Shown here in pieces: positions 1 through 26,575 of a DNA stretch of 26,668 bases. The translations under genes were made by a program, and so were the position numbers. How positions within the stretch are numbered: position 1 is the first letter of the stretch; every line of letters begins with the position of its first letter. This DNA is from an uncultured Candidatus Peribacteria bacterium (GTDB lineage: Bacteria; Patescibacteriota; Gracilibacteria; UBA1369): NCBI GenBank assembly GCA_964655905.1, contig CAZZPB010000021.1:1-26668 (forward strand), written 5' to 3'. The notes under the pieces are model-generated. The model had not been told where the DNA came from. It saw only the letters and a program-made list of their open reading frames with translations, and made no database searches.

Positions 1-9
1 GTTGGATGA
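1..9 (+). CDS. sufB: Probable extreme 3' end of sufB (…V-G-stop), gene lies upstream of the window
   Basis: 1-11 (gttggatgaat) is identical to 232-242, which ends a SufB-like C-terminus. Position directly upstream of sufD fits the sufCBDSU order. Only 3 codons are visible. Confidence 0.45.
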   Translation, partial: VG

Positions 10-80
10 ATGTGTTATCAACTTTATATGAAAACCGCAAACACAAATATTATTGCAAGAAAAGCTACAAAAACCTGCAT

Positions 81-190
81 CAAGCCTAAGAGTGGGTCTT
101 GTGGGTTCCCGCTCTTAGGCTTGCGAAGGGGAAAGGGGCCCCCGCGAAAGCGGGGGTACCTGGGGAAAACCGTAGGTTGCCCCCAGAAGA
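81..190 (-). mobile_element. Three-hairpin element E1 (homologous to E2 at 2484-2593, opposite orientation)
   Basis: Reverse complement aligns with E2: ttc(t/c)gggggcaacctacggttt, linker gcccc(t/c)ttccccttc, loop gggaacccac(a/g)agaccc. Hairpins: 81-96/108-123, 139-145/150-156, 160-186. Confidence 0.7.
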
Positions 191-192
191 AA

Positions 193-240
193 GAAATGAA
201 CCGTTTGATTGCGATGGAAATGACGGGGTCTGTTGGATGA
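193..240 (+). pseudogene. Copy of the last 15 codons of sufB (EMNRLIAMEMTGSVG*)
   Basis: The translation matches the conserved SufB C-terminus (…E-x-NRLI-x-x-EM-x-GSVG*). It is cut off from the rest of the gene by E1. Confidence 0.7.
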
Positions 241-241
241 A

Positions 242-271: not shown

Positions 272-916
272 ATGGATCCGGGCGCACTTAATAAAATAAC
301 TTTTCCAAAAGATAAAACAATTTTTGCCACAGGGTTCGAGAGTGCCAATATTTGCCTTGAAGAAGGGGTAAAATTGACTTTTATTTTGATCGCTACCGAT
401 GGGTTCCAGAGACCTGAAAAAGTCACTTTTGAACTTAAAGGCGCAGGGGCGCAGTTACAGTTTTTGGCCTTTATTGTGGGCAGAAAAGAAAAAATATTTC
501 CCTTTGAAACAGTTTCTCTGCATACGGCTCCAAATACAAAAGCCCATTATACTGTTAAAGCGGTCATGTTTGACCATTCGCAGGTTGATTACAAAGGCAA
601 CATTGTCATTGAAAAATCGGCGCAAATGACAGACAGCTATTTGTCACATCACACATTGCTGATGAGCGAACATGCAAGGGCAAAGTCCATTCCTGCTCTG
701 GAAATTTTAGCTGATGATGTGAAAGCTGGACATGCGGCTACAATCGGCAAAGTGGATGAAGAAATGATGTTTTATTTGAAGAGTCGCGGCATTGAAGAAT
801 GTGAAGCTGAACAAATGCTGGTGAATGGCTTTTTTGAAGGCCAATTAGCCATGATTATGGATGAAAACTTGCGTGAACGGGCTAGAAAAGCTATCATTGG
901 CTCTCTTATAACATAA
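272..916 (+). CDS. sufD: Fe-S cluster assembly protein SufD (short SufBD-family form)
   Basis: SIPALEILADDVKAGHAATIGKVDEEMMFYLKSRGI…LVNGF motif, within a suf operon. Confidence 0.9.
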   Translation: MDPGALNKITFPKDKTIFATGFESANICLEEGVKLTFILIATDGFQRPEKVTFELKGAGAQLQFLAFIVGRKEKIFPFETVSLHTAPNTKAHYTVKAVMFDHSQVDYKGNIVIEKSAQMTDSYLSHHTLLMSEHARAKSIPALEILADDVKAGHAATIGKVDEEMMFYLKSRGIEECEAEQMLVNGFFEGQLAMIMDENLRERARKAIIGSLIT

Positions 917-927
917 TATTTATTTTT

Positions 928-1092
928 ATGAACGATCAAAGTACTCAATGTGCCTGCGGTAAAGGCGAAACCGGTGCTTGTTGCGGAAAGAACGAATCCT
1001 GCGCCTGCGGCAAACAGGAAAGCTGCGGTTGCGATAGGAAGGAAAATGCTTGTAATTGTGGAAGTGAGGATGGCGGAGGTTGTTGCGGGTAA
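928..1092 (+). CDS. 54-aa Cys/Gly-rich metallothionein-like protein (absent from the ORF track)
   Basis: Hand translation: MNDQSTQCACGKGETGACCGKNESCACGKQESCGCDRKENACNCGSEDGGGCCG*. 12 Cys, all in CxC or CC pairs. ATG is 11 nt after the sufD stop, behind an AT-rich leader. Confidence 0.85.
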   Translation: MNDQSTQCACGKGETGACCGKNESCACGKQESCGCDRKENACNCGSEDGGGCCG

Positions 1093-1098
1093 TTTTGG

Positions 1099-1161
1099 TC
1101 CCCGCTTTCGCGGGGATGACACCTGGCTTTCGCGGGGATGACACCTGGCTTTCGTGGGGAT
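1099..1161. repeat. REP-like hairpin followed by a 22-bp tandem repeat x2.6
   Basis: Hairpin tccccgc-tttc-gcgggga at 1099-1116. Unit gctttcgcggggatgacacctg at 1104-1125 and 1126-1147, partial at 1148-1161. Confidence 0.85.
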
Positions 1162-1186
1162 CGGGTAAAAATAAAATAACTCCGTC

Positions 1187-1210
1187 TGTCATTCCCGCGC
1201 AGGCGGGAAT
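1187..1210 (+). repeat. TGTCAT-type REP with ATTCCC-N8-GGGAAT core (same pattern as Neisseria dRS3)
   Basis: tgtc-attccc-gcgcaggc-gggaat. Confidence 0.75.
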
Positions 1211-1227
1211 TAACTTTTTCTAAAATA

Positions 1228-2586
1228 ATGGATGTTAAGTCAGTGAAAAAAGATTTTCCAATCTTTGAGCGGCAAATCAACGGGCGGCCGCTGGTATACC
1301 TTGATTCCGCTTCCACAAGCCAAAAACCAAGGGTCGTGCTTGAAGCGCTGCAGCACTACTACACCACGATGAACGCCAACATCCACCGCGGCATCCACAC
1401 CATGGCGGAAGAAGCGACTCTGGCTTATGAAAGCGTACGGGAACACGTAGCGCGCTTCATCAACGCACGCACATCATCTGAAATTATTTTTACCCGCAAT
1501 ACGACTGAAGCCATCAATTTAGTGGCTTACAGCTGGGGAGAACACAACCTGAATGAAGGCGATGAAATTGTGGTGAGCATTTTGGAACACCATTCGAATT
1601 TTGTGCCGTGGCAGCAGCTTTGCAAAAGAAAAAAAGCTGTTTTTCGCGTCATGCCCGTTGATGAAAACGGCTTGATTCAGCCCAATACTCTTGAGAAGTA
1701 CATCACAAAAAAAACAAAACTTGTGGCCATCACGCAGATGTCCAATGTTCTTGGCACAATTATTCCTCTGGAGCCAATAATAAAGGCGGCTCACCAGAAT
1801 GGCGCGATTGTGCTCGTTGACGGCGCCCAGAGCGTGCCGCACATGGGCGTGGATGTGCAAAAACTGGACTGTGATTTTTTGGCTTTCTCAGGCCATAAAA
1901 TGTTTGGCCCGACAGGCGTTGGCGTTCTCTATGGCAAAAAAGCCCTTTTGGAAGCCATGCCGCCATTTTTGTTTGGAGGAGATATGATTAAAGAGGTTCA
2001 TGTAGCCGAAACTACCTGGAATGATATTCCATGGAAATTTGAGGCAGGAACTCCAAATATTGCCGATGTTATCGCTTTTGGAAAGGCTCTGGAATATTTC
2101 AACGACATTGGCATTGAAAATATTTCCCGCCATGAACAGCATTTATTGGCTTATGCTAGGGAAAAACTCGCCATGCTGCCGGGAATAATTTTTTACGGTC
2201 CACAAAATCACGGTATGTCGGGCGGCATTCTTTCATTTAATATTCCAACCGTTCACGCGCATGATGTGGCAGCCATTTTGAACGAGGAAGGCATTGCCAT
2301 TCGCGCCGGCCATCATTGCGCGCAGCCGCTGATGGAAGCGCTTAAGGTAGCGGCCACCGCCCGTTTGAGTTTTTATGTGTATAATGACGAAGCTGACATT
2401 GATCGCACGTTCGAAGCTCTTAAAAAGGTTTATAATATTTTCAAGCCAGAAAAACATGGACATCTACGGCGAAATAATCCTTGTTCCGGGGGCAACCTAC
2501 GGTTTCCCCCGGGCACTCCTCGGCAAGCCTCGGAGCCCCCTTCCCCTTCACATATTTTCAACCGGGAACCCACGAGACCCGCTTGA
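1228..2586 (+). CDS. sufS: Cysteine desulfurase SufS with an ~46-aa element-derived C-terminal extension
   Basis: YLDSAST, DGAQS, FSGHKMFGPTGVG (PLP lysine) and IRAGHHCAQP (catalytic Cys). The SufS-like sequence ends near KKVYNIFK (~2445), and the ORF continues through E2. Confidence 0.95.
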   Translation: MDVKSVKKDFPIFERQINGRPLVYLDSASTSQKPRVVLEALQHYYTTMNANIHRGIHTMAEEATLAYESVREHVARFINARTSSEIIFTRNTTEAINLVAYSWGEHNLNEGDEIVVSILEHHSNFVPWQQLCKRKKAVFRVMPVDENGLIQPNTLEKYITKKTKLVAITQMSNVLGTIIPLEPIIKAAHQNGAIVLVDGAQSVPHMGVDVQKLDCDFLAFSGHKMFGPTGVGVLYGKKALLEAMPPFLFGGDMIKEVHVAETTWNDIPWKFEAGTPNIADVIAFGKALEYFNDIGIENISRHEQHLLAYAREKLAMLPGIIFYGPQNHGMSGGILSFNIPTVHAHDVAAILNEEGIAIRAGHHCAQPLMEALKVAATARLSFYVYNDEADIDRTFEALKKVYNIFKPEKHGHLRRNNPCSGGNLRFPPGTPRQASEPPSPSHIFNREPTRPA

Positions 2587-2650
2587 AAATATGGCATATG
2601 TTCCATTATATTTTCTACTTTCAGCACATGGACATCTACGGCGAAATAAT
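2454..2650 (+). repeat. 25-bp exact direct repeat of the sufU start flanking E2
   Basis: acatggacatctacggcgaaataat at 2454-2478 and 2626-2650. It may extend left to atattttc (2435/2608) with divergence. Confidence 0.9.
2479..2625 (+). mobile_element. Three-hairpin element E2 inserted at the sufS/sufU junction
   Basis: 147 bp between the direct repeats. Hairpins: 2486-2512, ~2511-2538, and 2551-2566/2578-2593. Homologous to E1. Confidence 0.75.
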
Positions 2651-3002
2651 TCTCGACCATTACCGCAACCCGCACCATTACGGACGGCTTGAAAAAGCCA
2701 CTTTATCGGCAAAAGATGTAAATCCGCTCTGCGGGGACAGCATACAGATTGATTTGCTGATTGACGGCAACAACACAATTCAAGACATTGCTTTTACGGC
2801 TCAGGGCTGCGCCATAAGCCAGGCCAGCGCTTCCATGCTTAGTGACATTCTCATCGGAAAATCACTCAAGTTCGCAGCGCAAATATGCAGTGAAGATATT
2901 TACGAAATGGTGGGAGTGCCGCTATCGCCGGCGCGCATTAAATGCGCGCTTTTAGGCTTATCTGCAATAAAAAAAGCAATAACGCTGCAGTATGTTTCTT
3001 GA
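2628..3002 (+). CDS. sufU: SufU/IscU-family Fe-S scaffold or sulfur-transfer protein
   Basis: MDIYGEIILDHYRNP start, NPLCGD, GCAISQASAS, RIKCAL. The listed 2481 start lies inside E2 and is unlikely. Confidence 0.9.
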   Translation: MDIYGEIILDHYRNPHHYGRLEKATLSAKDVNPLCGDSIQIDLLIDGNNTIQDIAFTAQGCAISQASASMLSDILIGKSLKFAAQICSEDIYEMVGVPLSPARIKCALLGLSAIKKAITLQYVS

Positions 3003-3006
3003 ATTT

Positions 3007-3330
3007 ATGCCCCATCAAACCCACAAATTTGACCAGAGCAATCCCTACCATGCCATTTTAAACGAGGTGATTGACCCCGAAGCCGGTGTTGGCATCGTTG
3101 ATATGGGGCTTATTTACGATGTAAGTGAAGAAAATGGCATTGTAAAAGTTACAATGACGCTTACTTCAATGGGCTGCCCTGCCGGACCGCAGCTAACCAC
3201 GGATATTGATGATATCCTGCGCCTGCAGCCCCACGTTAAAGATGTTGAAATTGAAGTCGTGTGGGACCCGCCGTGGACTCCGGATCAAATGAATCCGGAG
3301 ATTAGACAGATGCTGTTTGGCGGATTATAA
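3007..3330 (+). CDS. sufT: DUF59/SufT (PaaD-like) Fe-S maturation protein
   Basis: VIDPEAGVGIVDMGLIYDV, MTLTSMGCPAG, VWDPPWTPD. The start could alternatively be 2992. Confidence 0.88.
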   Translation: MPHQTHKFDQSNPYHAILNEVIDPEAGVGIVDMGLIYDVSEENGIVKVTMTLTSMGCPAGPQLTTDIDDILRLQPHVKDVEIEVVWDPPWTPDQMNPEIRQMLFGGL

Positions 3331-5506: not shown

Positions 5507-5724
5507 AAAAACGCGCAACACAAACTTTAGGCCTATGTATGATTTTCGAATGGAATCAGCTTTCCATTGATCTATAAGCCATTATTGCTTAATCCATTTT
5601 GTCTTCGCCTTTATGACATTCATTAGAAGACAACCTTCAGATCTCAAACCCACTACCAAGCCTTTAAATCGTACGACCGCAGATACATTATCACTATTTT
5701 ATGAAAACTTTCTAAATTATTTCT
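5507..5724 (-). ncRNA. Candidate structured RNA, copy 1 (RNA ~5680 to 5506, promoter-like region 5687-5716)
   Basis: Homologous to 22973-23172, including an 18-bp exact block tcattagaagacaacctt. Stems pair through G-U only on the minus strand. Ends in a U-tract. Confidence 0.6.
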
Positions 5725-5786
5725 GAATTTTTCAAACTATTTGCCACAAGCCCTTAATTTTTTATTTTTTATGTTATTATATCCGC

Positions 5787-6398
5787 ATGAAACTTATGAA
5801 ATTCTTTTTATTTGGCCTTATTTTTGTCAGTATTTTTGCTGGGTGTATTCAAAAAAAACCTGCACCACCGCAATCTCCTAGCAAAAAGATATCACCCGCT
5901 GCCGGCCAATCGCCCGCTCAGCAAAAACCACCAGCGAAAACAGACGGCAAATCCATAGTAACCCGCCTTCCAGCCATGCTTATAAGGATCGTCGACGGAG
6001 ATACGTTGGAGGTTTCTTTGGATAATATTGCAGAAAAAGTGAGACTTCTTGGCATCAATAGCCCTGAAACCGTTGATCCCAGGCAGCCTGTGCAATGTTT
6101 TGGCCATGAAGCCGCGCAGTATTTAAAAACCTTGTTGCCTGGAAAAAATATTTTTCTTCAAAAAGATTCGTATGCTTCGGATCGTGATCAGTATGGGCGG
6201 CTTTTACGTTATGTCTATAATGAACAAAATCTTTTTGTTAATGTGGAAATGGTCAAAAATGGCTATGCGTTGGCTTATACTCCGGGTGCATTAGAACATT
6301 TTAGTGATTTTCGATATTACGAAAAAATTGCGCGTGATGCCAATCTTGGCCTTTGGAACGCGAATACCTGCCCATATAAATCGAACTATGGAAAATAA
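5787..6398 (+). CDS. Thermonuclease (SNase) family lipoprotein
   Basis: Lipobox IFAGC, IVDGDTL, VRLLGINSPE, DRDQYGRLLRYVY, VNVEMVKNGYA, GLW. Confidence 0.93.
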   Translation: MKLMKFFLFGLIFVSIFAGCIQKKPAPPQSPSKKISPAAGQSPAQQKPPAKTDGKSIVTRLPAMLIRIVDGDTLEVSLDNIAEKVRLLGINSPETVDPRQPVQCFGHEAAQYLKTLLPGKNIFLQKDSYASDRDQYGRLLRYVYNEQNLFVNVEMVKNGYALAYTPGALEHFSDFRYYEKIARDANLGLWNANTCPYKSNYGK

Positions 6399-7338
6399 AA
6401 ATATCTATGATCTTGTGATTATTGGAGCGGGTTGCGCTGGGGCAAGCGGCGCCATGTATGCCGCGCGCATGAATTTAAAAACGGTAATGATCGCTGAATT
6501 GCCCGGCGGACTCATAACAACAACTCATCTTGTTGAAAACTGGCCCGGGATCAAAAACATATCAGGACCAGACCTGGGAAGCGCTTTAGTTGACCATGCC
6601 GTATCATTTGGCGTCCCTTTGGTGAACGAACGCGTAATTGAAGTAAAAAAAGCCATTCCAGCTCCACCTGCGGAAAAACAAAGCGGATACATCGTAAAAA
6701 CGGCTTCCAACACCTATTATGCAAAGACCGTTCTTTTCGCGACAGGCACAAAACACAAAACGCTGGACGTGCCGGGCGAAAAAGAATTTACCAATAAAGG
6801 CCTTTCATACTGCGCCCTTTGCGACGGCGCCTTTTTTAAGGGTAAAACGGTTGCCGTGGTGGGCAGCGGCGATTCCGCGGCTAAAGAAGCGCTTTTATTA
6901 AGCGAATATTGTCCAAAAGTGTATATTTTTGTCCGCAAAGATAAGCTGAAAGCGGAACCTGTGAATTTTGACCGCGTGATCGCAAAAGGCATGGATAAAA
7001 TCGAAATACGGTATCGCACTGAAATCAAAGAAATTTTTGGCACAAAAAGCGTGGAAAAAGTTCTTTTGAACACAGGGGAAGAAATGGCTTTACAGGGCAT
7101 TTTTGTTGCCATCGGCCACACTGCTCTTTCAGAATTGGCGGGCCAATTGGGCGTAACATTAAATGACAACGGTGAAATTATCATTAACCGCAAGTCCCAG
7201 ACAAATCTATCCGGTGTTTTTGGCGCCGGCGACGTGTGCGATACTCCTTTTAAGCAGGCCATTACTGGCGCAGCGGAGGCCGTATCCGCCGCCTATTTCG
7301 CCTTTGACTATATTGGTAAAAACGATGTGGCGTTTTAG
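6388..7338 (+). CDS. trxB: Thioredoxin reductase
   Basis: IIGAGCAG, YCALCDG (CxxC), VVGSGDSA, VFGAGDV…KQAITGA. Start reassigned to MENK at 6388. Confidence 0.93.
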   Translation: MENKNIYDLVIIGAGCAGASGAMYAARMNLKTVMIAELPGGLITTTHLVENWPGIKNISGPDLGSALVDHAVSFGVPLVNERVIEVKKAIPAPPAEKQSGYIVKTASNTYYAKTVLFATGTKHKTLDVPGEKEFTNKGLSYCALCDGAFFKGKTVAVVGSGDSAAKEALLLSEYCPKVYIFVRKDKLKAEPVNFDRVIAKGMDKIEIRYRTEIKEIFGTKSVEKVLLNTGEEMALQGIFVAIGHTALSELAGQLGVTLNDNGEIIINRKSQTNLSGVFGAGDVCDTPFKQAITGAAEAVSAAYFAFDYIGKNDVAF

Positions 7339-7432: not shown

Positions 7433-8182
7433 TCAGCGCCAGGCCCTAATTTTTTTAATTTCATCCCCAATAAACATTAATACCTCCTGTTTAAGGAATT
7501 TTCTTGTTTGATTAAAATCTTTTTTACCAATCAGGTGATTTAAATCTTCATCAAGCATGTTTTGTGTAACTTTTTTTTGAATAAAACCGTAAAGCTGTTC
7601 AAAAAAGCTTTTTACATTTGTTTTTCGTCTTTCTTCAATGATTTGCGGTAAATATGCATATCCGTCCCTAAAAAATGTGTGAATGTCAAAAATATCTCTT
7701 CCTGCTACTGACCTGTATTTCTCATATCTTTCTATTGCAGCCACCAGTTTATTGGCAAACATTGTAGGGATTGTTTGACAATAAAAAATCCGGTCAATTT
7801 CAGTAAAACGATATGGCTCATATTCATTTGAAACAGGCGGCGGATATGTAACATCAAAACGTAAAATACTTCTTTCACCGGGAATATTTTTATATCTCAA
7901 AAAAAATTGCGGCACTCTTTTACTGCGATCCTTGATTTCAAGTCCCAGTTCACTAAAAACTGCCTCCAGCTCCCTGTTTAATTTATCAATTTGTTCAGTA
8001 GTTGCCGGAAGCAGATCAAAGTCCAAATCAACAGAAAATCGTTCAATTATGCCTCTCATTGCCGCGCAGGTGCCGCCTTTAAAACGCAGCAAAGAAACCA
8101 GAAAAGTATGATCCGCCAATTTGCTCAGCACTCTATAAAGCCAGGCTTTATGGATGGCATCACCTGCTTTTGGTAAATCCAT
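7433..8182 (-). CDS. AbiEii-type nucleotidyltransferase toxin (type IV TA)
   Basis: FKGGTCAAM…RFSVDLDFD, ANKLVAA, RDIFDI. Confidence 0.88.
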   Translation of the reverse strand: MDLPKAGDAIHKAWLYRVLSKLADHTFLVSLLRFKGGTCAAMRGIIERFSVDLDFDLLPATTEQIDKLNRELEAVFSELGLEIKDRSKRVPQFFLRYKNIPGERSILRFDVTYPPPVSNEYEPYRFTEIDRIFYCQTIPTMFANKLVAAIERYEKYRSVAGRDIFDIHTFFRDGYAYLPQIIEERRKTNVKSFFEQLYGFIQKKVTQNMLDEDLNHLIGKKDFNQTRKFLKQEVLMFIGDEIKKIRAWR

Positions 8183-9241: not shown

Positions 9242-10045
9242 ATGTTAACCAAACAGATGCCAATTACACAACCCAAAGTTAAGGGTTTGATGCCGCACCC
9301 CAGACCGGGGCTTCGTTGTGGCGTACCTGCAGGCATCAAAAAAATCATTGCGGTTCATAGCGGCAAGGGTGGCGTAGGAAAAACGTTTGTCGCGATAAAT
9401 TTGGCCGCGCTGTTGGCAAAAAAAGGCTATAAAATCGGCCTGCTCGATGCTGATATTGACTGTCCAAATGTGATGAAAATGTTGCAGTTGAGCGGAAAAT
9501 TGATTGTTGATAAGAATCAGAAAATAACACCGCTGGAAAAATTTGGAATGAAAGTTATTTCCATGGCCCCCATGTTGAACTCTGAAGATGAGGTCTTGAT
9601 GTGGCGCGGGCCGATTGTTTCACGGGTTGTTGAGCAATTTATTTTTGATGTAGCGTGGGACTGCCTGGATTTTTTGATTGTCGATCTGCCTCCTGGCACT
9701 TCCGATATTCCCCTGACGCTTTTTCAAATTGTAAAAGAAGCAAAATTATTGCTGGTTAGCACGCCACAGGAATTGGCCCTTTTAGATGCGAAAAAATCCA
9801 TCAACATGGCCAAAAGGCTGCAAACTGATATTATTGGAATAATGGAAAATATGGCCGGCCCCATTTTTGGGAGAGGCTCAGCAAAAAAACTGGCTTCCAG
9901 TTTGCAAATACCATTTTTAGGGAGTATCTCTCTTGAAAAATCATATACCCTTCCCAATAATTCTGGCATGCCACATGTTTTATCTGATCTAAAACTCCAG
10001 GAAAATTTTAAATGCACATTGAAAATATTAGAAAGTTGTTTGTAG
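9242..10045 (+). CDS. mrp: Mrp/ApbC/NBP35-family P-loop ATPase lacking the C-terminal CXXC
   Basis: SGKGGVGKT, LLDADID, MWRGP, LIVDLPPGTSD, STPQELALLDAKK, ENM. Confidence 0.9.
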   Translation: MLTKQMPITQPKVKGLMPHPRPGLRCGVPAGIKKIIAVHSGKGGVGKTFVAINLAALLAKKGYKIGLLDADIDCPNVMKMLQLSGKLIVDKNQKITPLEKFGMKVISMAPMLNSEDEVLMWRGPIVSRVVEQFIFDVAWDCLDFLIVDLPPGTSDIPLTLFQIVKEAKLLLVSTPQELALLDAKKSINMAKRLQTDIIGIMENMAGPIFGRGSAKKLASSLQIPFLGSISLEKSYTLPNNSGMPHVLSDLKLQENFKCTLKILESCL

Positions 10046-10125: not shown

Positions 10126-10209
10126 GGGCGGGTGGCGAAACTGGCAGACGCGCTACGTTCAGGTCGTAGTGATCGCAAGATCGTGGAGGTTCAAGTCCTC
10201 TCTCGCCCA
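10126..10209 (+). tRNA. tRNA-Leu (CAG)
   Basis: Acceptor gggcggg/ctcgccc, anticodon arm ctacg-ttCAGgt-cgtag, long variable arm gatc-gcaa-gatc, TTC T-loop. CCA not encoded. Confidence 0.97.
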
Positions 10210-10284: not shown

Positions 10285-10701
10285 TTATTTCCCTTTGGCC
10301 TTTTGAACCTTCGTTTCGACCTTCTTCATAACCTTGGTCTCAGGTTTTTTCGTCTCAATTGCAGGTTTCTTCATTTTGGTTTCAGGCTTTTTCGTTTCCA
10401 TTGCCGGTTTCTTTTCAACTTTCTTCATCTCCTGCTTTTTGAGACCTTTCTTTAACCCTTCACCTCTTTGAAGAGCGTTTTCAGTGCCGGTAACTTTTGG
10501 CTTGGTTGTCATTACCGGAGGAGTAGTAACAGTCTTTGCAGGTTTTGTGACAGCCTTCACCGGAGGTGTAACAACCTTCACCGGAGATGTAACAGCTTTC
10601 ACCGGAGGTGTAGCGGTCTTTGTCGCACCAGCCTGGGCAAACACCGGAGCGGTGGAAAGCAGCATGGACAAAGCGATACCGATAGCGACGTATTTTTTCA
10701 T
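10285..10701 (-). CDS. Secreted Lys/Pro/Thr-rich low-complexity protein (paralog A)
   Basis: Signal peptide MKKYVAIGIALSMLLSTAPVFA, 7-aa PVKAVT repeats, KKP repeats. Confidence 0.85.
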   Translation of the reverse strand: MKKYVAIGIALSMLLSTAPVFAQAGATKTATPPVKAVTSPVKVVTPPVKAVTKPAKTVTTPPVMTTKPKVTGTENALQRGEGLKKGLKKQEMKKVEKKPAMETKKPETKMKKPAIETKKPETKVMKKVETKVQKAKGK

Positions 10702-10740
10702 TAAGTTATGGAGTTAAAAAATAAAAATGTTATTGGAACT

Positions 10741-11370
10741 TTATTTGTCTTTTACCTTTTTGAGCCTTTCTTCCGTCTTTTTTACTTTATTCTCGTATTT
10801 TTTTACTTCACCTTCCTGCTTTTCCATCCTTTTCTCTAATTTTTTGGTTTCCTTTGCTTTTCTTTCTTCTTTTTTCTCTTCACGTTCAGCCTTATTTTCA
10901 GTCTTTTTCTTTTCCCACTTTGCCTTATCTTCAGCCTTTTTCTTGTCTGTTTCAGCCCTCTTCTCGGCTATCTTCTTGTCCGTTTCAGCCCTCTTCTCAG
11001 CTATCTTCTTGTCTGTTTCAGCCCTCTTCTTATCCATCTCGCCACTCTTTTCAGGATTTTTCTTGTCCGTCTCGGCCCTCTTTTCAGCCCTCTTCTTGTC
11101 CAACTCAGCTCTCTTTTCAGCTCTCTTCTTGTCCAACTCGGACCTATTTCCTTCCTGTTTCTTGAGACCTTTTTTCAATCCCTCACCTCTTTTTAGAGCA
11201 TTTTCAGTGCCTGTGACCTTTTGTTCAGTCTTTGGAGGAGTAGTGGTGGCGGGAGTAGTAACCGCAGGAGTAGCAGCGGCAGGAGCGGTTGTTCCAGCTG
11301 TCTGCGCAAACACCGGCGCGGTGGAAAGCAGCATGGACAAAGCTATACTTATTGCAATGTATTTTTTCAT
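10741..11370 (-). CDS. Secreted Lys/Glu-rich coiled-coil repeat protein (paralog B)
   Basis: Signal peptide nearly identical to paralog A, with 11-aa AETDKKxAEKR repeats. Confidence 0.85.
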   Translation of the reverse strand: MKKYIAISIALSMLLSTAPVFAQTAGTTAPAAATPAVTTPATTTPPKTEQKVTGTENALKRGEGLKKGLKKQEGNRSELDKKRAEKRAELDKKRAEKRAETDKKNPEKSGEMDKKRAETDKKIAEKRAETDKKIAEKRAETDKKKAEDKAKWEKKKTENKAEREEKKEERKAKETKKLEKRMEKQEGEVKKYENKVKKTEERLKKVKDK

Positions 11371-11462
11371 ATATTTTTAGAGTAAAAAAATAAAATTAGT
11401 TTATATTGTGGAATATCCCAACCCGTGTGACCAACAATTATAACGTAAAACTACTAAAAATA

Positions 11463-13265: not shown

Positions 13266-14078
13266 TTAACTCCATTTTTTGTTCTTTAGCGCGTGCTCCG
13301 CCGCTTCCTGTTCAGCTTTTTGCTTGCTTGACCCTTTTCCTTCCCCAATCAATTCTTCACCAATATAGGCGCCCATTGTGAAAATTTTATCGTGGTCGGG
13401 ACCTTTCTGTTCGTGAACCCTGTATTCGGGAGTTATGCCAAGCGTTTCCTGTGATATTTCCTGCAGTTTTGATTTTGCGTCTATATGATGACCTTTTTTC
13501 AGAATTTCATCGAGCCGTTTGATAATAAATTCATCAATAAAAATATGTGCAGTTTTATAGTTTTGGTCAAGAAAAATTGCTCCAATAAGAGCCTCTAAAG
13601 TATTGGCAAGAATATAATTTTTTTTACGGCCACCCGAATGTTCCTCTCCTTTGCTTAAATAAAGGTATGTTCCCAAATCCAAATGATCTGCTATCTCCGC
13701 CAGATGTTTTCCCTTTACCAGAGCCGAACGCCAATTCGTCAAAACACCTTCTTCCTGTTGTGGAAAAGTTTTATAGAGATATTCCGTGACAACAAGCTCC
13801 AAAACAGCATCACCTAAAAATTCCAGCCGTTCGTTTGATGTAGGGGCTTGCGCCTGCCTGCCGGCAGGCAGGTCGCCCTCCAACCCCGCCTTGGCGGGGA
13901 TTGGAGCCTCCCCCTCTCGCACGCGTTGCTCGCTAGCAATTTTATATCCCTCGTGGGCCGATTTGATTTTTTTATGTTCGTTTAGATATGAGGTATGGAC
14001 AAAGGCGGTATCAAGAAGATCAATGTCCTTGAAGGCAATTTTGATTTTTTTTTGGAGTTTATCGTAGCTACTTGGCAT
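13266..14078 (-). CDS. rnc: Ribonuclease III with an in-frame palindrome-derived insertion
   Basis: NERLEFLGDAVL, ANTLEALIGAIFLD, C-terminal dsRBD (DAKSKLQE…GKGSSKQKAEQEAA). Confidence 0.96.
   Translation of the reverse strand: MPSSYDKLQKKIKIAFKDIDLLDTAFVHTSYLNEHKKIKSAHEGYKIASEQRVREGEAPIPAKAGLEGDLPAGRQAQAPTSNERLEFLGDAVLELVVTEYLYKTFPQQEEGVLTNWRSALVKGKHLAEIADHLDLGTYLYLSKGEEHSGGRKKNYILANTLEALIGAIFLDQNYKTAHIFIDEFIIKRLDEILKKGHHIDAKSKLQEISQETLGITPEYRVHEQKGPDHDKIFTMGAYIGEELIGEGKGSSKQKAEQEAAEHALKNKKWS
13840..13939. repeat. Nested REP-like palindromes inside rnc
   Basis: GTAG start at 13840, perfect cctgcctgccggcaggcagg at 13853-13872, ccccgcc-tt-ggcgggg at 13884-13899, ttgct-cgct-agcaa at 13926-13939. 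Confidence 0.85.
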
Positions 14079-14747: not shown

Positions 14748-14862
14748 AGACGAGCCCGAAGGGCTTGTTAAGAAATTACAGCGACCGAAGGGAGCAACCA
14801 CAGACGAGCCCTCGCGAAAGCGGGGGCCTTGTTAAGAAGTCAACACCCCGCCACGGCGGGGT
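14748..14862. repeat. Duplicated hairpin motif plus REP hairpin in the rpmF leader
   Basis: agacgagccc…cttgttaagaa at 14748-14774 and 14802-14838, and accccgcc-ac-ggcggggt at 14845-14862. Confidence 0.8.
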
Positions 14863-17467: not shown

Positions 17468-18526
17468 ATGATAAACGATACTTATACACTGAACAAACGG
17501 CAGGATCACATATTGGATTTTATAGATAAAAAAGGAGACGCATCTATTTCTGAAATTTTCGCGGCTATATTCAAAAAAACCCGCGCTGTCGCTGAAATCA
17601 CTGTAAAAAGAGATCTCAAAAAATTGGTTGATTTGAATTTAATTGTTGCAAAAGGCGCCGGCAGAGCCGTGAAATATGAATTATCCCCGGCATATTCGGT
17701 TATAAGACCTGTTGATGTGGATAAATATTTTGAAAAGGAAATTGACGAACGGATGATACGGGAACGTTTCAATTTTCATGTGTTTTCACACCTCAAGTCC
17801 ATATTTTCGCGTGATGAAAAAATATTTTTACAAAAATTGAATAATAGTTATTTGAAAAAAGTGGGGCATCTGCCAAAAGATGTGTTAAAAAAAGAATTTG
17901 AAAGATTGACCATAGAGCTAAGCTGGAAATCGTCCAGAATTGAGGGTAACACCTATTCTTTGCTTGAAACAGAGCAGCTTTTAAAAGAAAACAGAGAAGC
18001 AGGGGGACATACCAAAGAGGAGGCTATCATGATTCTTAATCATAAAAAAACCCTGGATTATATACGCAATAATGTTCGGGGATTCAAATCTTTATCCTTA
18101 AAAAAGCTCGAAGAAATTCATTCTTTATTAATTGAAGGACTTGGCGTTTCAAAAAATGTCAGAAAGACAATGGTTAGAATTACCGGCACAAGATTTAAAC
18201 CTCTTGATAATCAATTTCAGATAACTGAATCGCTCAAAAAAGCATGCTCCCTTGTTAATCAGCGAAAAAATCCCTTTGAAAAAGCATTGATTATGATGCT
18301 TCTAATTGCGTACATTCAACCTTTCGTTGATGGAAATAAGCGGACAAGCCGCTTGGCTGGCAATGCTGTTCTTTTGGCAAATGGTTGCTGCCCTCTGTCA
18401 TACAGAAGCATCAACGAAATCGAATACAAGAAAGCAGTTTTAATTTTTTATGAACAAAATAATATTTCCTATTTTAAAAAACTCTTCTTACAGCAGTTTG
18501 AATTCGTTGTGAAGAATTATTTTTAG
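17468..18526 (+). CDS. Fic-domain protein with an N-terminal DeoR-like wHTH
   Basis: ITVKRDLKKLV…GAGRAVKY, WKSSRIEGN, YIQPFVDGNKRTSR. Confidence 0.9.
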   Translation: MINDTYTLNKRQDHILDFIDKKGDASISEIFAAIFKKTRAVAEITVKRDLKKLVDLNLIVAKGAGRAVKYELSPAYSVIRPVDVDKYFEKEIDERMIRERFNFHVFSHLKSIFSRDEKIFLQKLNNSYLKKVGHLPKDVLKKEFERLTIELSWKSSRIEGNTYSLLETEQLLKENREAGGHTKEEAIMILNHKKTLDYIRNNVRGFKSLSLKKLEEIHSLLIEGLGVSKNVRKTMVRITGTRFKPLDNQFQITESLKKACSLVNQRKNPFEKALIMMLLIAYIQPFVDGNKRTSRLAGNAVLLANGCCPLSYRSINEIEYKKAVLIFYEQNNISYFKKLFLQQFEFVVKNYF

Positions 18527-22972: not shown

Positions 22973-23172
22973 AAAAACGCGCAGCCCAAACCTTAGGCCT
23001 ATATATGGTTTTTGCCTTCTATAAGCCATTTGTTCTTCAATCCCTTTCCGTCTTCACCTTTTACATATCATTAGAAGACAACCTTAGAATCTCAAACCTA
23101 CTACCAAGCCTTTTAATCGTACGACCAATTACGTATTATCACGTTTTTATGAAATCCATCTAAATTATTTCT
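22973..23172 (-). ncRNA. Candidate structured RNA, copy 2 (RNA ~23128 to 22973, promoter-like region 23135-23164)
   Basis: Homologous to 5507-5724, with pairing-preserving substitutions and a shorter variable loop. Confidence 0.6.
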
Positions 23173-23249
23173 TAAAAATTGTGTATATCGCAGCCGGAAT
23201 TTGTGGTACAATTACGAGAGCGGTAAAAAAATTTAATAAAATCAAACTT

Positions 23250-24206
23250 ATGCAAAATACTTTTAAGACAAATGTGGCTCCAATTATCTCTTCTTTGCTG
23301 GCTCTTGCCATACTTGCCCTGCCGGCGTTCGCGGCCACAGGACCGGGCGCTACGCCGCCCAGCGGCAATGTTGGAGCAAATTTTAATAGTATTTATGCTG
23401 AGAACTCAGACGGTAAGACCGGTGTCACTGGTGTGAGTACTGGCGGCGTGAGTGATGGTGACGGCGTTAGGGGCATTGGAGGTGGTGATGGTATTGTGGA
23501 TGGTGCCGGAGGCATTGGCGGAAATTTTACCGGTAAACGTTTCGGCGTTCGGTCACGAGTAAATAGCTCTACTGTTGGAGTAGCCGCCGGACATTTTGAA
23601 AATGTTGCCAGTGGCTATATAGTTGACGTTGGATTAGCTGATCTTGCCCTACAGTCACAGGGGCCAGTTACAGTTAAAGGGAAACTTACAACTGAAGGTG
23701 ATTCTTCTTTTCTTGGATATTTAAGTGCACAGAGTAAATCTGGAACCCTCCCCGCCGGCTATTTTAAAAGCAACACTGGTCTTGTTGAGAATGAAGTAAA
23801 TCTTGCAGGCTCTAGTAATGCTATTTTAACCAAAGGAGATATTACTGTAAGTTCTGGAGATATTAATGTATCGTCTGGAAAAATAACTGTTGGTTCTGTA
23901 GCAAGCATTTCGAGTACTGGCCATATCAAAGCAGCAGGTGGCGTCGGACGATTTTATACAGCTGTAGGCTCTTCTATCCTTGTCAGTGCTGGCCAGTATG
24001 TGTTTATAACTTCTAAATGTGATGACTTAACGAAGCATAGAAGAATAAGTTGTGGTTTTACTACATCAGCTTCAAATGTAGTCCAAGCTGACATGTCGGA
24101 CTCAAGTTATGCAAACCAGTGCGATTTCTATGTAAAAAATCTTAATACTGGTATATCAGATGCCAGTGTTACTGGTGTAGCTACATGTTTTGACCCCAAT
24201 GGTTAA
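23250..24206 (+). CDS. Secreted Gly/Ser/Val-rich beta-repeat protein with a 4-Cys C-terminal domain
   Basis: Signal peptide ending …LALPAFA, GVxG repeats, TxxGDIxV repeats, ends TCFDPNG*. Start reassigned to MQNT. Confidence 0.8.
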   Translation: MQNTFKTNVAPIISSLLALAILALPAFAATGPGATPPSGNVGANFNSIYAENSDGKTGVTGVSTGGVSDGDGVRGIGGGDGIVDGAGGIGGNFTGKRFGVRSRVNSSTVGVAAGHFENVASGYIVDVGLADLALQSQGPVTVKGKLTTEGDSSFLGYLSAQSKSGTLPAGYFKSNTGLVENEVNLAGSSNAILTKGDITVSSGDINVSSGKITVGSVASISSTGHIKAAGGVGRFYTAVGSSILVSAGQYVFITSKCDDLTKHRRISCGFTTSASNVVQADMSDSSYANQCDFYVKNLNTGISDASVTGVATCFDPNG

Positions 24207-24820: not shown

Positions 24821-24925
24821 GTTGTATGAAAGTGAATAAATAAGTTGATAAACGTCTTTGGAAATATTGTAAGGAAAATCTTTCCAAAGCTCAAGCCAGA
24901 TTATCTGGTAAAGGTATTTATTGTT

Positions 24926-24957
24926 TTGCTTTACTTTAAAGATAATTGCTTTACTTT
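24926..24957 (+). promoter_or_regulatory. Probable autoregulatory operator of the AbrB/VapC pair
   Basis: ttgctttacttt repeated at 24926 and 24946 (20-bp phase), with an inverted gtaaag just upstream. Confidence 0.4.
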
Positions 24958-25010
24958 TTTCAATTTTTACCTTATTATCAGGGTATAGTAGCTTTTATTC
25001 TAACTTTATT

Positions 25011-25292
25011 ATGAGCGACATATCTAAATCTTCGCTTTCGGAAAAAGCCCAAACAACTGTTCCTGCTGAAATACGTAAAATGTTTAACGTCAGGGCTAAA
25101 GACCAGATTCTTTGGGTGCCGGTCGGTCCCGGCATGATCAGCCTTGTAGCTGTAAAAAAGTATAAAAAAGGGAGTTGGACAAAGAACATTTGCGGAAAAT
25201 ACTCAAATAATAAAGTTGATGCCGTTCAAAGTCTTTTGGATGACCGAAAGAAAGATCTTATTCTGGAAAAACGTGGATTTCTTAATAAATAA
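25011..25292 (+). CDS. AbrB/MazE/SpoVT-family antitoxin
   Basis: SSLSEKAQTTVPAEIRKMFNVRAKDQILW. Start reassigned to MSDI. Confidence 0.85.
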   Translation: MSDISKSSLSEKAQTTVPAEIRKMFNVRAKDQILWVPVGPGMISLVAVKKYKKGSWTKNICGKYSNNKVDAVQSLLDDRKKDLILEKRGFLNK

Positions 25293-25294
25293 AG

Positions 25295-25702
25295 GTGATT
25301 GACATTCTTGATGCTTCAGCCCTTCTGGCTTTTATAAAAAAAGAAAAGGGCTATCAAAAAGTGGAACAATTATTTCTTAATGCCGAATCAAGCGGCAAAA
25401 GTTTGTTCATGCATCAGGTAAATTTTATAGAATTTATTTATAAAGCACGGCAAATTTATAACATGGAAAAATTTAATGAGATTATTGCTGATTTGCAGAC
25501 TCCAATATTTGGCATTATGAATTACATGGAGGCCGATATTGGGTTTTATTGTGGCCATCTAAAGGCCGAGTATTATTTGTCGCTTGGAGATGCCATGGGC
25601 CTGGCGTACACAAAAATCATGGAAGGCAGATTTTGGTCAGCAGACAAGGCTCTATTGCCAATAGCCAATAAAGAAAAAATTGAACTTAATTTGTTCCGTT
25701 AA
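25295..25702 (+). CDS. PIN-domain toxin (VapC family)
   Basis: ILDASALLAF…E-KG, VNFIE, LSLGDAMGLA, WSADK. GTG start 2 nt after the antitoxin stop. Confidence 0.9.
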   Translation: MIDILDASALLAFIKKEKGYQKVEQLFLNAESSGKSLFMHQVNFIEFIYKARQIYNMEKFNEIIADLQTPIFGIMNYMEADIGFYCGHLKAEYYLSLGDAMGLAYTKIMEGRFWSADKALLPIANKEKIELNLFR

Positions 25703-26498: not shown

Positions 26499-26575
26499 GG
26501 AGTTATAGCTCAGTTGGTTAGAGCGCAACATTGACATTGTTGAGGTCGGAGGTTCGAGCCCTCCTAACTCCACCA
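26499..26575 (+). tRNA. tRNA-Val (GAC)
   Basis: Acceptor ggagtta/taactcc + ACCA, anticodon arm caaca-ttGACat-tgttg, GGTTCGAG T-arm, upstream TGcTATAAT at 26454-26462. Confidence 0.97.

Follow-up and report, generated by a model that had tools for sequence, protein, structure and literature searches.

A putative metallothionein-like small-protein family in the suf operon of Peribacteria/Peregrinibacteria-type CPR bacteria

Introduction

What makes a protein a metallothionein is its composition and the way it binds metal, and not descent. SmtA has histidine ligands, aromatic residues and a zinc-finger-like fold, and mymT is copper-regulated and located outside any suf operon, in contrast to the gene described here. 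To our knowledge, no other metallothionein-like family has its gene fixed within an operon for Fe-S cluster assembly. MymT is the Cu(I) metallothionein of mycobacteria (PMC11672702). Short cysteine-rich ORFs have also been described in a regulatory role: the polycysteine attenuator sORFs of the mycobacterial “Cys ribulon” are leaderless first ORFs that use an RNA duplex mechanism, with two consecutive Cys codons being sufficient (bioRxiv 10.1101/834739).

The DNA analysed here, from herein “the window”, is the whole 26,668-base contig CAZZPB010000021.1 of an uncultured Candidatus Peribacteria bacterium, and it starts at the end of sufB. Between sufD and sufS it carries a small ORF whose sequence looks like that of a new metallothionein-like family, with putative metal binding, in the suf operon of a Peribacteria/Peregrinibacteria-type CPR bacterium.

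The suf operon and its additional gene

The operon has the order rrf2-sufC-sufB-sufD-X-sufS-sufU-sufT, where X is the small ORF (Table 1). As the sufD stop ends at position 916, the gap to the ATG of the small ORF is 11 nt, and both the distance and the shared strand are as given in the first-pass annotation; the upstream ORF that it took for sufD is SUFBD_core by Pfam. No Shine-Dalgarno sequence is present in the 11-nt gap, nor upstream of most genes on the contig, and the region resembles the AT-rich, Shine-Dalgarno-less upstream regions of other window genes. The sequence ..ttatttttATG is kept in the related loci L001, L004 and L005. The small ORF is found between sufD and sufS and co-directional with them in the window, L001, L004, L005, L007, L012, L014 and L015. 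Two other loci lie at contig ends and have one flank each: L011, where the ORF and sufS are accompanied by a 45-aa fragment without assigned identity, and L016, with sufD and a truncated ORF. The small ORF is probably a suf operon gene, for which co-transcription is predicted and co-translation is likely.

Table 1. Coordinates of the features discussed (positions in the window)
Feature	Position	Strand	Remarks
sufB, last ~15 codons	195..240	+	EMNRLIAMEMTGSVG, then stop; inserted repeat element before them
sufD	272..916	+	short SufBD-core protein, 214 aa; PF01458, E 2e-45; homologues named SufD at source
AT-rich gap, sufD stop to ATG	917..927	+	tatttattttt, 11 nt
Small Cys/Gly-rich ORF, metallothionein-like gene (metal binding putative)	928..1092	+	54 aa, ATG to TAA
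Spacer between small ORF and sufS	1093..1227	+	palindromic and tandem repeats
sufS	1228..2586	+	class-V aminotransferase cysteine desulfurase; Aminotran_5, E 5e-159
sufU/IscU-family gene	2628..3002	+	124 aa; NifU_N; three conserved Cys (NPLCGD, GCAIS, RIKCALL)
sufT	2992..3330	+	DUF59 / FeS_assembly_P
Thioredoxin-reductase-like flavoprotein	6304..7338
AbiEii toxin	7433..8182
ApbC/Mrp (NUBPL-type) Fe-S carrier ATPase	9242..10045
tRNA	10126..10209
Fic-domain protein	17468..18526
PrlF/MazE-like antitoxin with PIN toxin	24921..25702
tRNA	26499..26572

The translated product of the small ORF is MNDQSTQCACGKGETGACCGKNESCACGKQESCGCDRKENACNCGSEDGGGCCG. It has 12 Cys (22%) in pairs at positions 8/10, 18/19, 25/27, 33/35, 42/44 and 52/53, forming four CxC and two CC motifs, together with 11 Gly, and His, Phe, Trp, Tyr, Ile, Leu and Val are all absent; re-translation bears out every detail of the Cys pairs, Gly count and missing residues as first reported. 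The product is net acidic. The pairs had been described as evenly spaced, and there are indeed six of them, but the intervals vary from 7 to 10 residues and the internal periodicity of the ORF, at 8-9 codons, is weak (z about 2.5), with a unit approximating C-x-C-G-K-x-E-S. The Cys density of the ORF is far above chance. Window ORFs of at least 200 aa have a background Cys content of 0.94%, every other 54-aa stretch in all six frames of the window has seven Cys at most, and 200,000 base shuffles of the ORF yielded no open frame with 12 or more Cys (maximum 7).

The U-type protein encoded downstream has retained the Cys/Asp/Cys/Cys ligands of Zn-dependent SufU together with its R-x-K-C motif (PARIKCALL); the ligand motifs of Zn-dependent SufU are reviewed in PMC13066941. 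In the one alignment that covers the region, the U-type protein lacks the insertion of the solved T. thermophilus homologue 2QQ4, making its Zn dependence and metal status uncertain, and it may be intermediate between an IscU/MisU-type scaffold and Zn-SufU.

Orthologues and evidence of coding

Since direct protein searches were empty, orthologues were reached by way of the neighbouring gene, using SufD homologues to arrive at contigs of close relatives. SufD of L001, which is a “Candidatus Peribacteria” MAG, is 84% identical to that of the window, and SufD of L004 and L005 is 86% identical. All three loci carry an intact ORF of 51-55 aa, 11 nt after sufD: MTDQNTQCACGKGETGDCCGKDEACVCRQERAHGQESKSCACGNGNGGCCG in L001, MTDHNTECACGKGKNDDCCGSGESSSCREDEKVCTCQKEARSCICGNGSSGCCKD in L004 and MTDHDTKCACGKGETLNCCEKDASCACGQGKECACGRESQSCACGNDGDSCCRN in L005. 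Together with the window protein these are referred to as type A. The search for homologues across relatives proposed in the first-pass annotation has thus returned three distinct intact orthologues, all free of the frame disruption that it had named as contrary evidence, and, further out, proteins of similar composition in the same slot.

All four type-A sequences share ten of the 12 Cys positions of the window protein, seven of them within CxCG and CC motifs, and the Gly flanks and an N-terminal M-x-D-x-x-T-x-CACGKG are also conserved. The layout of six pairs is not strictly kept: the C33/C35 pair is missing from the L001 protein, and the L004 protein has 11 Cys. Indels among the orthologues are in frame (3 nt in the window-L001 DNA alignment). 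DNA similarity between the window and L001 extends across the ORF, is lost directly after its stop codon and is back at the start region of sufS.

Pairwise Nei-Gojobori comparison of type A gives pS of 0.63-0.81 against pN of 0.19-0.30, with omega of 0.11-0.19 where dS is computable and 0.17-0.30 with Cys codons excluded, values that come from only about 50 codons in four sequences with synonymous sites near saturation or saturated. By frame, pN/pS is 0.34 in the Cys frame and 0.50-1.30 in the other five, and SufD of the same genomes has a pN/pS of 0.16. The dN/dS check suggested at the outset hence indicates purifying selection, and in the Cys frame only (pN/pS as above). On this comparative evidence, the small ORF is a genuine protein-coding gene under purifying selection.

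Gene callers leave the ORF uncalled in the window, L001 and L005, and call a shifted Ala/Val-rich frame in its place in L004 (2651..2869) and L016 (904..1044). That the ORF was unannotated is confirmed, the exact product not being on record in the gene-call collection. Because gene callers skip or mis-frame the ORF, protein-database searches come back empty; the Cys-rich family is systematically missing from protein databases and almost invisible there.

Other occupants of the slot between sufD and sufS

The slot was surveyed more distantly using SufD homologues of 56-63% identity. Considering distinct loci with a readable sufD-sufS interval, a Cys/Gly-rich protein is encoded in nine of 12, a Rieske ferredoxin in one and no protein in two. 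The Cys-rich proteins outside type A can be grouped into three types. Type B is represented by a protein of 56 aa with 8 Cys (MDPKKAQHKKHDDADKTKKTDEGCCGRGCGDKCDDEKEVLKDEGGCCGGGCCKSQQ, L007) and by three further variants, P0121 (on L011), P0123 and P0124. P0123 comes from a Candidatus Gracilibacteria MAG and is called “hypothetical protein” there; no other source name was found. Type C proteins are 88-97 aa long with 16-17 Cys (L012, L015 and L016), and type D has 66 aa and 11 Cys (L014, P0126). The slot of L009 (3193..3552) holds a Rieske-type ferredoxin of 119 aa with CTH...CPRH motifs, and in L008 and L013 the slot is empty and sufD overlaps sufS. No Cys-rich extension was found on SufU or SufT of L008, L013 or the Rieske locus L009 in a Rosetta-stone test.

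The 11 distinct Cys-rich slot proteins are 51-97 aa long, net acidic and free of aromatics, with 14-22% Cys and 13-25% Gly, and GGCC(G/K/R) forms the C-terminus of most. Types other than A carry 8-17 Cys in other arrangements. With composition controlled for, type-A proteins are clearly homologous to one another (z 9.5-13), as are types B and D (z 11.4) and the members of type C (z 8.5), and homology of B and C is weakly supported (z 3.8-4.5). Between type A and types B, C and D, there is nothing beyond composition (shuffle z 0.7-1.7; hhalign probability 4%). As homology of A with B, C and D is not demonstrable, the family of the window protein consists of four known distinct members. Types B, C and D are best described from their sequences as positional and compositional analogues of type A, with a shared origin being possible. 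The small-ORF family is narrowly distributed and its Cys layout varies, and any function assigned to it is for that reason worded conditionally below.

Database and literature searches

A word-indexed search of 5.8 billion clusters with the 54-aa sequence gave no candidate, and an exhaustive phmmer search of 1.84 billion representative proteins gave no matches at E values up to 0.001. A profile of five slot proteins retrieved one further type-B protein and nothing else. Scanning metagenomes with the type-A profile gave no contig other than one identical to L001, and nothing of the family was found in two scans of viral contigs. In Pfam, which was searched with every metallothionein family included, no family was found for the 54-aa protein at E values up to 1, or for five relatives at E values up to 10; PF02069, the HMM of the SmtA/BmtA family, is among the models not matched. 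The first-pass annotation had proposed a new small-protein class distinct from SmtA/BmtA, and given that no Pfam metallothionein model matches, the description “new small-protein family” is fair. The 54-aa protein also matched no NCBIfam model (SCIFF-type precursors included), and its only phmmer match in the PDB is a chance one to a lipid-transfer protein (E 1.6). Rfam identified no known leader or riboswitch in or near the ORF, and neither small Cys-rich proteins of suf operons nor CPR metallothioneins turned up in the literature searched. AlphaFold2, run on the single sequence, gives a pLDDT of 56 and no confident fold, a prediction that would be compatible with a peptide folding only around metal and is not evidence for one.

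A RiPP precursor, of the SCIFF or TOMM/microcin B17-like kind, was considered and rejected, since the window has no maturase and the neighbours are always suf genes. No radical SAM, YcaO or dehydrogenase maturase domain was detected by Pfam in 33 window ORFs (nearly all of those of at least 100 aa), and no NCBIfam model matched.

Repeats and other elements of the contig

In the spacer between the small ORF and sufS, a 22-nt unit is present in 2.6 copies (1104..1161), and there are two hairpins, one at 1100..1115 and another, terminator-like and with a T-run behind it, at 1191..1210. Small GC-rich palindromes of the form CCCGC-N4-GCGGG number six in the window, where 0.5 would be expected, and a 22-nt tandem repeat fills intergenic spacers. 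Besides the spacer, elements of this sort are seen at 141..154, 13885..13898 and 14811..14860; they look REP-like and are absent from the same site in L001.

Inverted copies of an element of ~105-115 nt, at 81..194 (+) and 2478..2583 (reverse complement), bracket the segment from sufD through the ORF to sufS and are 75-83% complementary. Each copy adjoins a duplicated gene end (1..11 / 231..241 and 2454..2481 / 2626..2653): after the first, the last ~15 sufB codons are repeated, and around the second a 28-nt segment of the sufS end and sufU start is duplicated. The arrangement at both sites is uninterrupted in L001. The insertion rewrites the C-terminal tail of SufS and creates a decoy sufU start. 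For a MITE, target duplications of this length would be unusual.

Elsewhere on the contig, a 33-nt tandem repeat (10830..11168) with seven copies or more lies inside an ORF without Pfam match (ORFs 10727..11380 on the forward and 10741..11370 on the reverse strand), and a related segment is duplicated around this repeat (10430..10726 and 11153..11395). An intergenic repeat of ~200 nt with 83-88% identity (5507..5727 and 22973..23175) is located upstream of unrelated genes, one SNase-like (5787..6398) and the other without a recognised identity (23181..24206). This repeat might be mobile, or it might serve both genes as promoter or leader.

Proposed function and alternatives

We tentatively prefer, at somewhat less than an even chance, the reading that the small ORF product is a metallothionein-like metal-thiolate accessory of SUF, acting as a local Zn/Cu/Cd buffer and possibly as a Zn donor. 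Its CxC/CC-Gly architecture, polar linkers, weak 8-9-codon repeat and tolerance of changes in Cys number appear to be metallothionein-like hallmarks; metal binding, the identity of the metal and a protective or donor role we infer. The 54-aa protein would be cytoplasmic, probably disordered without metal, and would work through its thiolates, with the Gly-flanked CxC and CC pairs and the short polar or charged linkers wrapping several metal ions into metal-thiolate clusters. If it is made stoichiometrically with the SUF machinery, as we propose, it would act locally for that reason, taking up Zn(II), Cu(I) and Cd(II) that would otherwise fill Cys sites of SufS, SufU and SufBCD, and it might also pass Zn to the U-type sulfur-transfer protein. 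The local buffer model is preferred because Zn, Cu and other thiophilic metals interfere with Fe-S assembly. The accessory genes in ten of the 12 readable slots and the Zn-SufU ligand motifs of the adjacent U-type protein also speak for it. The relatives differ in Cys number (8-17) and spacing, so that a defined cluster stoichiometry is not a conserved property. Counting against a metal buffer are the lack of any metallothionein-model, NCBIfam or PDB match and the loci L008 and L013, which do without a slot gene.

It is conceivable that the product is irrelevant or does not exist. By analogy with the mycobacterial attenuators, a shortage of Cys-tRNA could slow ribosomes at the 8-17 Cys codons and, by coupling or polarity, reduce translation of SufS, a desulfurase that consumes cysteine. 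This has a slim chance of being right, even though the small ORF is immediately upstream of sufS in every locus, types B and C stop only 11-28 nt from the sufS start, two CC doublets provide consecutive Cys codons, and the window has the terminator-like hairpin described above. The ORF is internal to its operon, being neither first nor leaderless, and Rfam finds no leader or riboswitch. The spacer that would have to act measures 11 nt in L007 and L011, 28 in L012, 30 in L005, 135 in the window and 231 in L001. In the one pair aligned, window and L001, it shares no sequence, and the terminator-like hairpin of the window has no counterpart in that alignment; with mobile palindromic repeats also present, the RNA structure expected of an attenuator was not found. 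Selection also extends beyond Cys codons: the non-Cys codons are constrained (see the omega values above), and Gly flanks and the total lack of aromatics are kept across all types, which argues for selection on the peptide itself. A leader peptide is disfavoured on these grounds, that is the varying spacer, its lack of conservation where compared and the constrained non-Cys codons, and a classical transcription attenuator was rejected given the unconserved spacer; ribosome pausing with translational coupling is possible but is not the best reading. Even less credence, close to none, is given to a frame without function that is open by chance in G-rich intergenic DNA. The antisense strand and other frames are open too, and gene callers skip or mis-frame the ORF, but the frame-specific substitutions, conserved start and stop, in-frame indels and shuffle tests are all contrary to it.

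Two further readings keep the peptide as the active agent and give its thiolates another ligand. The stronger of these, still unlikely but a serious contender, is that they bind Fe(II) or a labile [2Fe-2S] or [4Fe-4S] cluster, making the protein an iron donor, a cluster carrier or a source of electrons or thiol reductant, and it would then be functionally equivalent to the Rieske ferredoxin of the relative. This would suit the conserved position between scaffold and sulfur-donor genes, the presence of the L009 Rieske protein in exactly this slot, the lack of a SufA/Nfu-type carrier in the fetched portions of these operons, and Cys numbers of 8, 12 and 16 in types B, A and C (the L012 protein), all multiples of four. 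Against it stand Cys spacing that differs between types and is nowhere of the ferredoxin-like CxxCxxC...CP form, CC doublets, which are poor ligand pairs for a single cluster, and an ApbC/Mrp carrier encoded elsewhere in the window. A narrower version is rather improbable, namely that a minimal SUF system has in this peptide its dedicated chaperone of the Fe(II)-thiolate or Fe-S kind, which either donates iron or is the first to accept a cluster, and that this chaperone and a Rieske ferredoxin are evolutionarily interchangeable. The other reading, to which we attach little weight, is that of a thiol or persulfide buffer which accepts sulfane sulfur from SufS/SufU as persulfides or polysulfides, or substitutes for a low-molecular-weight thiol; in the latter version, which assumes a host without a glutathione-like thiol, the peptide may reduce persulfide or shield SUF cysteines from oxidation. 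Adjacency to sufS and sufU, the very high thiol density with low constraint apart from Cys and Gly, and a thioredoxin-reductase-like gene nearby are in keeping with such a buffer. On the other hand, SufU is already a sulfur acceptor, the literature searches found no precedent, and a persulfide role cannot be separated from metal binding by sequence alone.

If the peptide does bind metal, as in the metal-thiolate reading that we prefer, it would represent a bacterial metallothionein-like family with no detectable relation to SmtA or the Pfam metallothionein families, MymT being outside that comparison, and it would follow that CPR bacteria with reduced genomes manage metal supply to SUF, or its poisoning, with a dedicated co-expressed peptide. 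If it were an Fe(II)/Fe-S chaperone, the iron-delivery step of Fe-S biogenesis, so far unresolved, would gain a candidate that is defined genetically. At 54 aa it is an easily synthesised reagent for asking how SufS, SufU and SufBCD admit or exclude Zn, Cu or Fe, and its gene illustrates clearly that standard gene callers can skip or mis-frame a small gene even when it is conserved.

Comparison with known systems

The Rieske ferredoxin of L009 has in common with the window protein its operon slot and the character of a small accessory metalloprotein (putatively so for the window protein), but it is a folded 119-aa domain with CxH...CxxH ligands and has no similarity to the window protein in sequence or composition. 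Like the sORFs of the Cys ribulon, the window ORF is short, unannotated and rich in Cys codons, and it precedes a gene of cysteine metabolism on what is predicted to be the same transcript. The ribulon sORFs, however, have runs of consecutive Cys codons, whereas the slot ORFs are internal and 51-97 codons long, with constrained non-Cys residues in the window ORF and no conserved RNA structure downstream of it.

SmtA and BmtA are, like the window protein, small bacterial Cys-rich proteins, with metal binding proposed in the case of the window protein; they differ in having His ligands and aromatics, neither of which is found in the window protein. MymT can be likened to the window protein by description only: it too is a bacterial peptide of ~50 aa, confined to one lineage and overlooked by annotation, and it sequesters a thiophilic metal in the cytoplasm, a role that is putative for the window protein. 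As to the general features of metallothioneins, low mass (<10 kDa) is seen in the 54-aa protein and its relatives of 51-97 aa, high Cys content in CxC, CC or CxxC motifs in both (22%, and 14-22% in relatives), and few or no aromatics in all 11 distinct slot proteins, which have zero Phe, Trp and Tyr.

The closest resemblance in these respects is to the eukaryote-type metallothioneins of plants, fungi and animals (PF00131, PF01439 and PF11403, among others). The window protein is of similar size (~5.5 kDa), and shares with them ~20% Cys as CxC/CC, linkers rich in Gly, Lys, Ser, Asp and Glu, the lack of aromatics, a weak internal repeat and, probably, an unfolded state without metal. It differs in having no detectable homology to them, in being bacterial (CPR) and in that its metal binding is putative. 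The setting of the genes differs as well, with eukaryote-type metallothioneins in a metal-responsive locus and the window ORF in an Fe-S assembly operon.
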